Source: Escherichia coli
Lineage (GTDB): Bacteria > Pseudomonadota > Gammaproteobacteria > Enterobacterales > Enterobacteriaceae
Strand: one strand, 5' to 3'
Assembly: GCF_050920415.1 (NCBI RefSeq)
Contig: NZ_CP169309.1
DNA: 64,000 nt
A model generated the notes under the pieces. The model was not told where the DNA came from, ran no database searches, and worked only from the letters and a program-made list of their open reading frames with translations. The position numbers and the translations under genes are program-made. The stretch's first letter is position 1. Each line of letters starts with the position of its first letter. This document shows, one piece after another, positions 12,301-16,835 of this stretch.

Positions 12301-13458
12301 ATGAACCCAGTACCCGCGCAACGTGAATATTTCCTCGACTCCATCCGCGCCTGGCTGATGTTGTTAGGGATCCCTTTTCATATTTCTTTAATCTATTCGA
12401 GCCATACATGGCATGTGAATAGCGCCGAACCGTCATTGTGGCTGACCCTTTTTAATGACTTCATCCACTCGTTCCGCATGCAGGTATTTTTCGTTATATC
12501 CGGGTACTTTTCCTACATGCTTTTTTTACGCTATCCCTTGAAAAAATGGTGGAAAGTACGTGTCGAACGTGTAGGGATCCCGATGTTAACAGCCATCCCC
12601 CTACTGACATTGCCGCAATTTATTATGCTGCAATACGTCAAAGGGAAAGCGGAAAGTTGGCCTGGACTGTCATTGTATGACAAATATAATACGTTGGCCT
12701 GGGAATTAATATCGCATCTGTGGTTTTTATTGGTGCTAGTGGTCATGACGACGCTGTGCGTATGGATATTTAAACGCATCAGAAATAATTTAGAAAATTC
12801 TGATAAAACGAATAAAAAATTCTCGATGGTAAAATTATCGGTGATTTTTTTGTGCCTCGGCATCGGTTATGCGGTAATAAGAAGAACGATTTTTATTGTG
12901 TATCCACCCATTCTGAGTAACGGCATGTTCAATTTTATTGTCATGCAAACGCTATTTTATTTGCCGTTCTTTATCCTCGGCGCACTGGCTTTCATTTTCC
13001 CTCATCTTAAAGCCTTGTTTACCACGCCGTCTCGTGGCTGTACCCTCGCAGCAGCATTGGCATTTGTCGCTTACTTACTCAACCAGCGCTACGGCAGTGG
13101 CGATGCCTGGATGTACGAAACCGAGTCGGTGATCACGATGGTCCTCGGTCTATGGATGGTGAATGTGGTCTTCTCCTTTGGCCACCGTTTGCTTAATTTC
13201 CAGTCGGCGCGGGTGACTTACTTTGTTAACGCATCGCTGTTTATCTATCTGGTTCATCACCCGTTAACGCTGTTTTTCGGCGCGTACATTACACCGCACA
13301 TCACCTCCAACTGGCTTGGTTTTCTCTGTGGCCTGATATTCGTAGTAGGGATTGCGATAATTCTGTATGAAATTCATTTACGCATCCCGTTACTGAAGTT
13401 TTTGTTCTCTGGTAAACCGGTTGTTAAGCGTGAGAACGATAAAGCACCAGCCCGTTAA
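12301..13458 (+). CDS. opgC: OPG succinyltransferase OpgC (MdoC), acyltransferase-3 family membrane protein
   Basis: 385 aa multi-pass hydrophobic ORF; recognised as MdoC; divergent from opgGH. Confidence 0.9.
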
Positions 13459-13465
13459 GCCGCGT

Positions 13466-14896
13466 TTACAATAACCATTCCACAGGCAATATCGACGCCA
13501 GTCTGACCATAACCCGCTTCCAGAAACTGGTAGCGGGTTCTTTTTTGAGAACAATTTCTTTCTTTGCATGACGATCAACCCAGTTGATCCGCCCCCACCT
13601 GTCCAGACGGAGCTGCCAGGCCGCATCATACTGGCTCTGAATAAAGCGTTTATCAATTAACTCTGCCAACGTTTCGCTCTCTATCACGAACCCCATTTCA
13701 GTATTGAGCAATGTCGAACGTGGATCGAAATTGAAAGAGCCAATAAACACCGTTTTACCATCGATGCTAAAGGTTTTAGCATGCAGGCTGGCACCGGAAT
13801 TACCGGTTATGCCGCGATCGTGTAACGTACTACTTTGTTCACGCGTCGGTTTGAGTTCATATAATTCCACGCCGTAGCGGAGCAATTTTTTGCGCCAGCG
13901 CGCGTATCCGGCATGGACGACAGCAACATCGTTAGCGGCAAGAGAATTGGTTAGGATCGCAATCTTTACCCCTTTTCTCACCATCCGTAAGAGTTGCGCC
14001 ACACCTGCGCGTGTCGGTACAAAATAGGAAGAGATAATATCGATGCGTTCACTGGGTGAGCCCATGATATCGAACAGGCGTTGCGGTAACAGTGAATGCC
14101 GTTTTGCCTTGCCTTCCCCTTTCGCCGGATCATCACTTAATAAACGTGTTTTCGCCCAGATAAGCGGCAACGTTCCATCAACCAGATGATTTATAAACGG
14201 GCTGGATTCCATTTTGCGTAAATAACGATGCGTCATGGCATCGTCATGCCAGGAGGCGGGTAACTCGATGCGATCCGCCATTTCACCTTCCGGGACATCC
14301 AGCACCTGCTGTAAGGGTGAAACCGATTTACAATACCAGTAGCGGGCGAAATCATCGGCAACGTCCTCTACAACTGGTCCTATTGCCATGACATCTAAAT
14401 CCGAAAAAAGTGGCTCTTCCCCTGCACCAAAATAGGCATCACCAATATTTCGCCCCCCTACCAGCGTCACCACGCCATCGACAGTGAAACTTTTATTGTG
14501 CATACGGCGATTGAGACGGGAAAAGTCGGTGATATAACCAAGCGGACGTAGCAAGCGAAACGAGAAAGGATTAAAAAGCCGGACTTCAATGCGGGGATGA
14601 CTGTCAAGCAAGCGTAAAATGTCGTCAAGTCCGGGTGTATTGTTGTCGTCCAGCAACAAACGGACGCGAACGCCACGCTTTGCTGCGGCTAACAGGGCGG
14701 AAAACAGTAACCGACCCGACATATCGTCCTGCCAGATGTAATACTGAACATCCAGCGTATGCTCTGCCATTTCGGCCAGACGATACCGGGCGGCAAACGC
14801 ATCCAGACTTTTCTCCAGAGGGAAAAGGCCACACTGACCGGGATGTTGCGAACACAGTGGCAGCACCGCGCTCGCCAGCCGGGGCAAATCATTCAT
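13466..14896 (-). CDS. clsC: cardiolipin synthase ClsC (YmdC), phospholipase D family
   Basis: ORF 13466..14956; two HKD motifs ([18 protein letters not shown]); start uncertain, placed at MNDLPRL where it overlaps the ymdB stop. Confidence 0.85.
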
Positions 14897-15422
14897 CTCC
14901 TTGTTGGGTAAGGAGTCTTTCGTAGAGGTGGGCGTTTTCTTCATCATAACAGACAAAGTATACCTGTTCGGGTAAAGCGTGACGGGTAATAAATTCTGAA
15001 ACGGTTTTTACTGCGATTTCAGCCGCTGCCGCACGAGGGTAACCATAAACCCCAGTACTAATTGCAGGAAAAGCCACTGACGTATAGCTGTTTGCCGCCA
15101 CCAGTCGTAGGCTATTGAGATAGGCATCCTGCAAAAGCTGGTCTTCGTTTTGTTCACCACCACGCCAGACTGGCCCGACGGTGTGCACTACGGCTTTAGC
15201 GGGAAGATCGCCTGCAAGCGTAATAACGGCATGCCCCGTAGGGCAATCGCCCTGCTGTTGCCTGACTTTTAAACAGGCATCCAGAAGGGCCGGACCCGCT
15301 GCGCGATGAATGGCTCCATCGACGCCGCCGCCTCCCATTAATGACGGATTAGCCGCATTCACAATCACATCAACGGCCAGTTTGGTAATATCACCCTGCA
15401 CAACATGAATACGCGTTTTCAT
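14889..15422 (-). CDS. ymdB: macro-domain O-acetyl-ADP-ribose deacetylase YmdB
   Basis: 177 aa ORF; recognised as YmdB. Confidence 0.9.
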
Positions 15423-15516
15423 AACGCCTCCTTACACCTTCTTGTTTCTTAAGTGTACAGCAGGCTTTTTGGTTAAATCGCATTTTTCTGCTCAGCAAGG
15501 TGAGTTGTTCAGAAAC

Positions 15517-15896
<380 letters not shown>

Positions 15897-15897
15897 C

Positions 15898-16281
<384 letters not shown>

Positions 16282-16339
16282 ATTCATCTCCCGAAAAAAA
16301 ACAGGGCTTACGCCCTGTTTCTGTAATACGAAATATAAA

Positions 16340-16795
16340 TTAGTACTGATGAGCGGTCGCGTTGTTGCCAAAACCAACCTGAGTAACGTTTACGCTAGAG
16401 TTAGATGCAGTTTGATCAACTGCAGCACCGTTACCACCACCAAACTGTTTAACAGTCATTTCAGAGTTTTTACCGTTCCACTGATCAAGAGTGGCACTGT
16501 TACCGAAGCCACGTTGGGTCAGATCGATTGAGCTGTCATCAGAGCCCTGACCAACATCTGCACCGTTACCGCCACCGTGCTGGGTAATCGTCAAGTCAGA
16601 GTTACGAGCATCAGTTTGCAGAGCAAGTGCAGAGTTACCACCACCGTACTGGTAAATATTCAGCTCTGAATTTGGGCCGCTATTATTACCGCCACCGCCA
16701 TGGTGACCACCACCGCCATACTGAGGAATAGAACCTGCCAGAGCGCTACCAGAGAATACGATTGCTGCAATTGCTGCTACTTTTAAAAGTTTCAT
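16340..16795 (-). CDS. csgA: major curlin subunit CsgA
   Basis: 151 aa ORF; signal peptide and five imperfect curlin repeats (SxxxxxQxGxGNxA). Confidence 0.95.
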   Translation of the reverse strand: MKLLKVAAIAAIVFSGSALAGSIPQYGGGGHHGGGGNNSGPNSELNIYQYGGGNSALALQTDARNSDLTITQHGGGNGADVGQGSDDSSIDLTQRGFGNSATLDQWNGKNSEMTVKQFGGGNGAAVDQTASNSSVNVTQVGFGNNATAHQY

Positions 16796-16835
16796 GTAAA
16801 ACCCCCATCGGATTGATTTAAAAGTCGAATGGAAA

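Follow-up and report, generated by a model that had tools for sequence, protein, structure and literature searches.

In the E. coli DNA analysed, clsC most likely starts at a pair of adjacent ATG codons, ATG14947 and ATG14944, to give a ClsC protein of 493 or 492 aa, a reading held with slightly better than even confidence. The first ~19 codons of clsC would coincide, in the +1 frame, with the last 19 sense codons of ymdB, forming an out-of-phase same-strand overlap of 59 or 56 nt, and both the start and the initiation region of clsC would lie inside ymdB. The junction-proximal TTG14887, provided with an AAGGAG motif, and ATG14896 would act at most as secondary starts dependent on the translation of ymdB.

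The window, a stretch of 64,000 nucleotides of E. coli DNA, carries the two genes on the minus strand (Table 1). Of 5426 complete E. coli genomes, 5423 matched a 601-nt junction query, 3659 of them with an identity of at least 99 %; the features annotated under these matches were ymdB and clsC, and the junction DNA was 100 % identical to that of strain RM14723. YmdB matched the NCBIfam model NF001660 with 376 bits (cutoff 271) over residues 1–177 of 177, that is, as a full-length equivalog. The predicted clsC product is a cardiolipin synthase C of the PLD superfamily with two PLD/HKD catalytic domains; Pfam recognized two stretches of PLDc_2 (137 bits) as well as the active-site motif of PLDc, located at residues 387–411. 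These matches and the RefSeq annotation agree with the gene identities given in a preliminary description of this DNA, which had also placed the ymdB stop codon correctly and pointed to an operon-like arrangement, borne out by two genes that overlap or abut on the same strand. ClsC of K-12 is described by Tan et al. (2012) as synthesizing cardiolipin from PE and PG.

The locus corresponds to ymdB-clsC of E. coli K-12 (b1045-b1046), with an identical structure and the same neighbours, csgA-csgC-ymdA upstream and opgC/mdoC downstream. The ClsC protein encoded in the window is 99.4 % identical to that of K-12 (b1046), from which it differs at a few residues. The sole issue between the two is the annotated start codon. 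In NC_000913.3 and in UniProt CLSC_ECOLI clsC starts at TTG14887 (473 aa), whereas PGAP placed the start at ATG14947 (493 aa) in all seven RefSeq records sampled, including one K-12 MG1655 assembly. The same allele has been deposited with four N-termini (493, 492, 476 and 473 aa), of which the 476-aa form starting at ATG14896 is found on 72 contigs only. The ambiguity of the clsC start is genuine, already visible in public data and a known annotation problem, and the caution of the preliminary description that the start could not be set from the sequence alone holds. To most readers the case will be an ordinary one of an ambiguous start codon where two genes overlap, of low general interest; nevertheless, the two most used E. 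coli annotations differ by 20 residues at the N-terminus of ClsC and both have been propagated on thousands of records.

Table 1 Positions of genes, candidate start codons and other features of the ymdB-clsC junction in the window
Feature	Position	Strand	Remarks
ymdB CDS	15422..14889	-	177-aa macrodomain O-acetyl-ADP-ribose deacetylase; ORF list, RefSeq on identical DNA
ymdB stop TGA	14891..14889	-	
clsC, longest ORF	14956..13466	-	
clsC CDS, long 493-aa form (best-supported)	14947..13466	-	PGAP, Pfam, comparative
TAA closing the clsC frame upstream	15008..15010	-	codon -44
TTG opening the maximal ORF	14954..14956	-	unlikely start; equivalent TTG in frame in 2 of 7 genomes with separated genes
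ATG-ATG pair	14942..14947	-	codons -23/-22 relative to core Leu27; best-supported start
ATG14896	14894..14896	-	codon -6; 8-nt ATGAATGA overlap with the ymdB end; least supported
TTG14887	14885..14887	-	codon -3, 1 nt past the ymdB stop; K-12 reference start; main rival or possible second start
SD-like AAGGAG	14897..14902	-	within ymdB codons Gln-Gly-Asp
Predicted mRNA hairpin CUCCUU-ACCCAAC-AAGGAG	14897..14915	-	sequesters the SD; inverted repeat and fold
ymdB Leu171 codon CTT	14910..14912	-	third-position purine or TTR gives TGA/TAA in the clsC frame
67-aa Cys-rich third-frame ORF	14689..14892	-	from out-of-frame ATG (14892..14890), ATGA with the ymdB stop

The clsC frame stays open for 67 nt into ymdB, and the first 59 nt of the long form lie within ymdB in its +1 frame. 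The positions 14954, 14945, 14942 and 14894, at which the preliminary description had located in-frame Met codons, each give the lower coordinate of a codon that is indeed in frame; three of these codons (14947..14945, 14944..14942 and 14896..14894) are ATG, but the outermost one (14956..14954) is TTG, which can serve as a start in bacteria but does not encode Met. The ATG named there as the most downstream start does overlap the end of ymdB, but a further candidate downstream of it, TTG14887, had been missed.

The minus strand at the end of ymdB reads AAGGAG ATG AAT GA, so the SD-like motif adjoins ATG14896 with a spacer of 0 nt, and no other SD is present 4–10 nt before this codon. TTG14887 is the sole candidate with a well-placed SD, at a working distance of 8–9 nt (-8.5 kcal/mol). 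The ATG pair has no usable SD, only a weak AGG(U) 13–16 nt away (-3.8 kcal/mol). The AAGGAG motif is predicted to be sequestered in an mRNA hairpin (-6.2 kcal/mol, 60 % of the ensemble, z -1.8), which is kept in E. fergusonii and broken in E. albertii and which would be opened by ribosomes translating ymdB. The out-of-frame ATG14892 is situated 3–4 nt past the same motif; the ORF it opens was rejected as a gene, with no Pfam match and no out-of-frame alternative TIS in INRI-seq. A conserved TATACT sequence located 8–9 nt before the ATG was considered as a -10 box for a leaderless clsC transcript and found unsupported, as a consensus scan of 14800–15600 gave no sigma-70-like promoter.

The pattern found in the window alone is not much above chance and becomes meaningful only by comparison with other genomes. 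The upstream ATGs are partly forced by the Tyr/Phe-Asp-Glu stretch encoded in ymdB, since the codons for Tyr-Asp-Glu, TAT GAT GAA, give ATG ATG in the +1 frame; similarly, ATG14896 follows from the Asp-Glu codons GAT GAA. Given the amino acids and codon usage of ymdB, the chance of an open frame was estimated at ~0.32 per lineage. With a background of one stop per ~28 codons in the clsC frame of ymdB, the open frame is weak evidence when taken one lineage at a time.

The comparison was performed on 32 Enterobacteriaceae genomes, with the distal region defined as codons -28 to -19. Conservation of the upstream codons, suggested in the preliminary description as a check, proved extensive: an ATG was present in the distal region in 30 of the 32 genomes, any distal start in 31, and the upstream frame of clsC was open in 31. 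ATG14947 is the positional homologue of this family-conserved start. In eight genomes, among them Salmonella, Leclercia, Intestinirhabdus and four in which ymdB and clsC are separated, the distal ATG was the only canonical start, codon -19 being the closest position at which any ATG, GTG or TTG could occur. A proximal start is not conserved among the relatives that share the junction. Some proximal start was found in 21 of the 32 genomes and none in the remaining 11, the positions varying (-3, -6, -8, -9, -10, -11); in only 10 relatives was the conserved core preceded by an ATG at a distance of up to 12 codons, at -3, -6 or -9. All 20 species compared encoded Leu171 of ymdB by CTT or CTC, which corresponds to stop avoidance in the clsC frame, and just 3 of 81 comparable ymdB columns were pyrimidine-only. 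No ClsC-specific model covers the N-terminus in NCBIfam, hence there is no model boundary at this point.

A natural experiment is provided by genomes that lack the overlap. In seven of them (Yokenella, Phytobacter and five relatives) an intact ymdB ends 90–230 nt upstream of clsC. An ATG at -24/-23 was kept in all seven, and in two (L092 and L094) it was the sole start in the open frame. The 23–24 codons that follow this ATG were almost unalignable (identity 0.59 vs 0.48 for random sequence). The clsC frame was free of stops, compared with 5 in one of the other frames and 15 in the second, and the probability of finding it open in these genomes was jointly ~0.002. Indels after the ATG were multiples of three, while those of other lengths occurred just upstream of it. 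ATG-23 and the open frame have also outlasted the decay of ymdB in Intestinirhabdus. The start and the frame of clsC were retained where the overlap had been resolved. Conservation thus concerns the start codon, the openness of the frame and the DNA immediately before them rather than the sequence of the tail, and the extension is a variable N-terminal tail that is probably dispensable. It is from the junction anatomy, the conflict between annotations, the conservation and the behaviour of the frame in genomes with the overlap resolved, all directly observed, that we infer initiation at the conserved ATG in E. coli itself.

Dual coding was considered as a further line of evidence and rejected. 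The raw synonymous diversity of ymdB was lower in the overlap (0.46 vs 0.55, p 0.035), but this difference was gone after normalization for codon degeneracy, when no suppression of synonymous change in ymdB was detected over the overlap (z -0.24, p 0.37; minimum-window permutation P 0.48). Since synonymous change is not suppressed and an SNP common in E. coli (14907 C>T) replaces a Pro of the ClsC extension by Leu, a dual-coding signature is lacking. Population variants were too sparse to decide between the starts: ATG>ACG at 14947 or 14944 occurred in 0 of 5426 E. coli genomes, though both changes are synonymous in ymdB, and none of these genomes carried the Leu171 alleles CTG or CTA, which place a stop in the clsC frame. 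The sole variant found to affect the candidates was TTG14887>TTA in one of the 5426 genomes (H1827/12).

The main rival reading, which we regard as rather unlikely, is that clsC starts at TTG14887 by classical coupling, the upstream open frame being a by-product of the ymdB sequence. Ribosomes that finish ymdB would melt the hairpin, and they, or fresh 30S subunits binding the freed SD, would restart 1 nt downstream. Besides the position of its SD and its standing as the curated reference annotation, this codon has in its favour that the conserved protein core begins exactly there and that a start precisely 1 nt past the ymdB stop recurs in three junction types (TGA-T-TTG, TGA-T-ATG and TAA-C-GTG). 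The TTG with its SD is shared with E. fergusonii and C. amalonaticus, and the same position is occupied by ATG in five genomes of the C. freundii group. In C. werkmanii, with stops in the upstream frame, the ATG at -3 is the only possible start, so the short ClsC is evidently sufficient there. On the other hand, E. albertii has TTA at this position and lacks the TTG, as does E. coli H1827/12. The SD is not conserved either, being AAGGCG in E. albertii and absent from the C. freundii group and from Salmonella. Of the 32 relatives, 11 are devoid of proximal starts. The persistence of the ATG and of a 24-codon open frame in genomes without the overlap is also left unexplained.

Published start-site data bear on this codon as well. 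INRI-seq, which confirms ~70 % of annotated starts, gave 0/0/0/0/0 at TTG14887, and the annotated clsC start was undetected both by this method and by in vivo Ribo-RET (PMC9825163). No autonomous initiation was seen in vitro by INRI-seq on the isolated transcript that contained AAGGAG, ATG14896 and TTG14887 without the upstream ATGs. This null result may arise because the SD-sequestering hairpin was present in the template, and the coupling model would account for it in this way. ClsC has no entry in the TRAINSPOTTER N-terminomics supplement or in that of PIRT-seq. According to statements in reviews, ymdB in cis raises ClsC, which would fit coupling at TTG14887, and the title of a 2024 paper states that the ymdB product is not needed for the substrate specificity of ClsC.

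Within the ATG pair favoured here as the start, ATG14944 was picked by tetracycline ribosome profiling (TetRP). Table S2 of that study assigns to ymdC/clsC an alternative ATG located upstream at -57 nt, equivalent to ATG14944, with signals of 0/30.1/16.1 (two of three samples) compared with 0/0/5.7 at the annotated TTG (Nakahigashi 2016, PMC4909307). The authors classified ymdC as 'not conclusive (5' ORF)' (PMC4909307), because elongation along ymdB could produce a signal at a site inside the upstream ORF. In being listed with an alternative upstream start, ymdC/clsC resembles the re-mapped and dual-start genes of E. coli; unlike the 39–61 confirmed cases, it was set aside as unresolvable (PMC4909307). 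Initiation at an upstream Met, which the preliminary description had named as an observation that would speak against its own proposal, is indicated strongly by the comparative evidence and weakly by experiment.

That proposal, a coupled start at ATG14896, did not find support. Translation from this codon (476 aa) by termination-reinitiation over the 8-nt ATGAATGA overlap seems very improbable. Overlaps of 8 nt are a common class of coupled junction, and the codon is an ATG kept in all four Escherichia species examined, including the TTG-less E. albertii. Some Citrobacter-like proteins have been called from the equivalent position (MNELTRL...), and the 476-aa form does occur among the deposited records. 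However, the SD adjoins the codon directly, the ATG is a by-product of ymdB coding, and neither major annotation uses it. Its equivalent is a Thr or Arg codon in several close relatives, and C. amalonaticus, Salmonella, Intestinirhabdus and most other genera lack the ATG. No signal was reported for it among the TetRP alternatives or the INRI-seq alternative TIS.

It could also be proposed that both starts are used, the long proteoform being made from ATG14947/14944 and the short one from TTG14887 and/or ATG14896, with their ratio set by how heavily ymdB is translated. Some relatives, such as Salmonella, can produce only the long form and C. werkmanii only the short one, and for this reason both forms are probably functional. 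Every candidate codon is nearly invariant across the 5426 E. coli genomes, and dual starts were reported by TetRP for many E. coli genes (PMC4909307). Nevertheless, two clsC peaks or protein sizes appeared in none of the datasets examined and the TetRP row for ymdC contains no second candidate, so the use of both starts is considered improbable, if less so than a start at ATG14896.

If clsC does start at the ATG pair, the reference 473-aa ClsC of the UniProt/EcoCyc type is 20 residues too short. The 5' end of clsC would be truncated in constructs made from the annotated TTG and in ymdB deletions that spare just the last few codons, and some ymdB knock-out phenotypes would in part be effects of a clsC hypomorph. 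The standard in-frame deletion of ymdB in the Keio design reportedly keeps only the last few codons. A deletion of this type would remove ATG14947/14944, and therefore the phenotypes of such mutants may be confounded by reduced ClsC. The effect of ymdB on ClsC would find a simple explanation in cis if the start or the initiation region of clsC lay inside ymdB; the long-reported need of YmdB for full ClsC activity could, as a tentative suggestion, be largely such a cis effect.

Among known systems, the lipoprotein-type ClsC homologues of Betaproteobacteria and other Proteobacteria share ~50 % identity with the enterobacterial protein over the whole PLD core, from the TRLGRA motif onwards. In at least 17 of the 39 examined the core is preceded, at a distance of ~25 residues, by a signal peptide with a lipobox (…LLAGC|ALPPLE.R…). 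Enterobacterial ClsC, unlike these, has no signal peptide and bears only a short variable tail. E. coli ClsC was accordingly rejected as a lipoprotein, as its LPLC motif does not qualify as a lipobox and relatives do not share the Cys.

Coupled stop/start junctions are of the ATGA, TAATG and TGAnATG types, as in the gene pairs of the trp operon. The ymdB-clsC junction resembles them in having co-directional genes, a start within a few nucleotides of the stop, an SD inside the upstream gene and a hairpin that upstream translation could open. It differs from these systems in that coupling is putative, the proximal start is not conserved and the best-supported start is located 56–59 nt further upstream.

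The junction region was matched in 5423 of the 5426 complete E. coli genomes, where it is annotated as ymdB and clsC. YmdB scored 376 bits against its NCBIfam equivalog, ClsC contains two PLD domains, and the identity of the locus as ymdB-clsC is not in doubt. The gene order of the neighbourhood (opgC/mdoC, clsC, ymdB, ymdA, csgC, csgA, csgB) is the same as in E. coli K-12, with nothing unusual.

Features of the ymdB-clsC neighbourhood (window coordinates)
Feature	Position	Strand	Remarks
opgC/mdoC	12301-13458	plus	adjoins clsC
clsC reading frame	14956 to 13466	minus	open from TTG 14956
67-aa ORF	14689-14892	minus	Cys-rich, third frame
ymdB	15422..14889	minus	stop TGA 14891..14889
ymdA	15517-15828	minus	
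csgC		minus	
csgA	16340-16795	minus	follows csgC
csgB	16836-17318	minus	last gene of 12301-17318

The minus strand at the junction reads ...TAT GAT GAA GAA AAC ... CTC CTT ACC CAA CAA GGA GAT GAA TGA in the ymdB frame and ...TTG TCT GTT ATG ATG AAG AAA ... TTA CCC AAC AAG GAG ATG AAT GAT TTG CCC CGG CTG in that of clsC. Named by their high-end coordinates, TTG14956, ATG14947, ATG14944, ATG14896 and TTG14887 are the codons in frame at which clsC might begin; the codon at 14950 is GTT and hence no candidate. The preliminary description, which is largely right about what is an ordinary junction, listed Met codons at 14954, 14945, 14942 and 14894. These are correct as low ends of codons, except that the one at 14954 is TTG, and TTG14887 was overlooked. 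An out-of-frame ATG (14892..14890, minus strand) overlaps the stop of ymdB in a classic ATGA 3-4 nt past AAGGAG and opens the 67-aa ORF, for which neither a Pfam match nor an INRI-seq signal was found and which is probably spurious.

The clsC start is truly ambiguous, as that description noticed, and public databases and one profiling study already show this. PGAP placed the start at ATG14947 (1482 nt, 493 aa, 59-nt overlap) in all seven RefSeq records sampled, including a K-12 MG1655 assembly, whereas the curated NC_000913.3 record starts clsC from the TTG 1 nt past the ymdB stop (473 aa, NP_415564.2). An exact-sequence look-up in public collections recovered all four N-terminal forms of one allele: 473 aa (typically UniProt CLSC_ECOLI) and 493 aa (typically PGAP) in at least 1000 contigs each, 476 aa (from ATG14896) in 72 and 492 aa (from ATG14944) in 25.

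A well-placed Shine-Dalgarno sequence was found only at TTG14887 (AAGGAG 14902..14897, 8-9 nt spacer, -8.5 kcal/mol). The upstream ATGs 14947/14944 have AGG(U) alone, 13-16 nt distant, and ATG14896 directly adjoins AAGGAG. A 6-bp hairpin is predicted to pair AAGGAG with CUCCUU of ymdB codons Leu170-Leu171 (-6.2 kcal/mol, 60 % of the ensemble, z -1.8); it is intact in E. fergusonii and disrupted in E. albertii.

TetRP (PMC4909307) lists for ymdC (clsC) a new start, an ATG at -57 nt relative to the annotated one and equivalent to window 14944, with signals of 0/30.1/16.1; the annotated TTG gave 0/0/5.7. The new site was rated 'not conclusive (5' ORF)' by the authors, since it falls within the coding sequence of an upstream gene with strong expression. 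In INRI-seq (PMC9825163) the synthetic clsC transcript began 30 nt upstream of the TTG and thus carried the hairpin, AAGGAG, ATG14896 and TTG14887 without the upstream ATGs. The annotated start gave 0 in five replicates, and the template showed just a marginal CTG at +69 and no alternative site at ATG14896; ymdB gave 150-320, and about 70 % of annotated starts were confirmed by the method. In vivo Ribo-RET was likewise 0 for clsC. In vitro, the proximal sites therefore do not act as a region of autonomous initiation. The zero could have been caused by the hairpin, and coupled initiation at the proximal sites could by this route be compatible with it. ATG14896, which the preliminary description had preferred, is the least likely of the starts, and a very improbable one, with its zero spacer and no INRI-seq site.

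The junction was then compared in 32 Enterobacteriaceae genomes, with clsC-frame codons counted from the conserved Leu27. Thirty have a distal ATG (codons -28 to -19), and 21 a proximal start of any kind, at varying positions. In eight genomes, with Salmonella, Leclercia, Enterobacter sp. ENT03 and Intestinirhabdus among them, no ATG, GTG or TTG lies closer than -19, which leaves the ATG within ymdB or a non-canonical codon as the start. Use of TTG14887 as the main start, for which its Shine-Dalgarno sequence speaks, gains from C. werkmanii, where a 2-nt deletion closes the upstream frame and the homologous ATG at -3, which overlaps the stop of ymdB as ATGA, is the sole usable start; judged from this gene, the short protein is evidently sufficient. 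Against it, besides the INRI-seq zeros, the codon is TTA in E. albertii and in 1 of the 5426 complete E. coli genomes, and we consider it unlikely. Comparable use of TTG14887 and the upstream ATG pair appears more doubtful still. The TTA-carrying E. coli, in the same state as E. albertii, is the blood isolate H1827/12 (NZ_CP013031.1, 1875826-1875870; L102).

Seven genomes of unchanged synteny (Yokenella, Phytobacter and five relatives) have resolved the overlap: 90-230 nt separate the end of an intact ymdB from clsC downstream, and a decayed relic of a ymdB 3' end lies directly 5' of clsC, e.g. QIYLSCYDNKNARR in Phytobacter. All seven keep an ATG at -24/-23, which in two is the sole start in the open frame. 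The following 23-24 codons are 0.59 identical (0.48 for random sequence with the same aligner) and contain no stops, vs 5 and 15 in the other two frames; the product of shuffle-based chances for the open frame was 0.0018. Extension lengths differ only by 3 nt, and non-3n indels are present immediately upstream of the ATG. On the simplest reading this ATG would be the family's clsC start codon, with ATG14947 as its positional homologue. Just before the ATG of these genomes, some 45 nt (…ACCAACC…AGGGCAGATATACTT…) form a block with an identity of 0.69, above that of the extension; this block may act in initiation or in regulation. The block (…ACCAACCnAACGG…AGGGCAGATATACTTTG…), non-coding and derived from a ymdB 3' end, was seen in the comparison loci L089-L094 and L018; in E. 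coli, a simple scan for sigma-70 promoters over the homologous region was negative. In Intestinirhabdus alba (L098:766-1059) ymdB is apparently decayed (a 92-aa ORF is called, only residues 113-177 being alignable) and ATG-23, the frame and an intact clsC are retained, so clsC can persist without functional YmdB.

In 20 species, clsC-frame stops occur within ymdB about once per 28 codons, with none between -29 and the junction; with the amino acids of ymdB and its codon usage taken into account, the chance of an open frame is about 0.32 per lineage. Only one site is vulnerable to closure, Leu171-Thr172 of ymdB. Leu171 is CTT/CTC in 20/20 species (of 81 comparable columns, just 3 hold pyrimidines alone), and CTG or CTA was found there in none of the 5426 E. 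coli genomes. Synonymous change in ymdB over the overlap was not suppressed after control for degeneracy, and a common SNP (14907 C>T, minus strand; 4 of 6 sampled variant alleles), silent in ymdB (ACC>ACT), replaces Pro17 by Leu in the long form of ClsC; the sequence of the tail is therefore not under selection. Selection acts on start and frame alone.

On balance we lean towards the upstream pair 14947/14944 as the clsC start. Conservation across the family suggests that initiation in E. coli would take place at this in-ymdB ATG, without a Shine-Dalgarno sequence and within a translated ORF. According to reviews, the yield of ClsC is higher from clsC clones containing ymdB, 'by an unknown mechanism'; elsewhere in the literature YmdB is regarded as a partner that ClsC requires. 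A 2024 paper states in its title that the ymdB product is not required for ClsC substrate specificity. An explanation in cis might lie either in a start codon or initiation region of clsC located within ymdB or in coupling of clsC to the translation of ymdB.

Fused reading frames were also observed. One E. coli allele in Logan assemblies (L100:1001-2956, L101:386-2341) encodes a 651-aa YmdB-ClsC fusion, in which one G is lost from the GGGG run at 15053 (ymdB codon 124) and A15009T abolishes the TAA normally closing the clsC frame; the contig is present in at least 20 samples, the deletion being in a homopolymer and possibly a sequencing error. Salmonella-like fusions of 652-653 aa (L099:1001-2962, Logan; L095 for comparison; P0024, with 28 member sequences, and P0025) result from a 1-nt deletion at ymdB nt 214, one frameshift sufficing because the clsC frame of Salmonella runs through ymdB without a stop for 149 codons.

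Among distant homologues of ClsC (Burkholderiales, Oligoflexus, Alcanivorax and others), at least 17 of 39 (L044, L049, L053, L056-L082) possess a lipoprotein signal peptide with a lipobox (…LLAGC|ALPPLE.R…), which precedes the tblastn match at roughly codons -50 to -20. Unlike these lipoprotein-type proteins, enterobacterial ClsC has no signal peptide, a difference that may be relevant to the side of the membrane faced by its active site.
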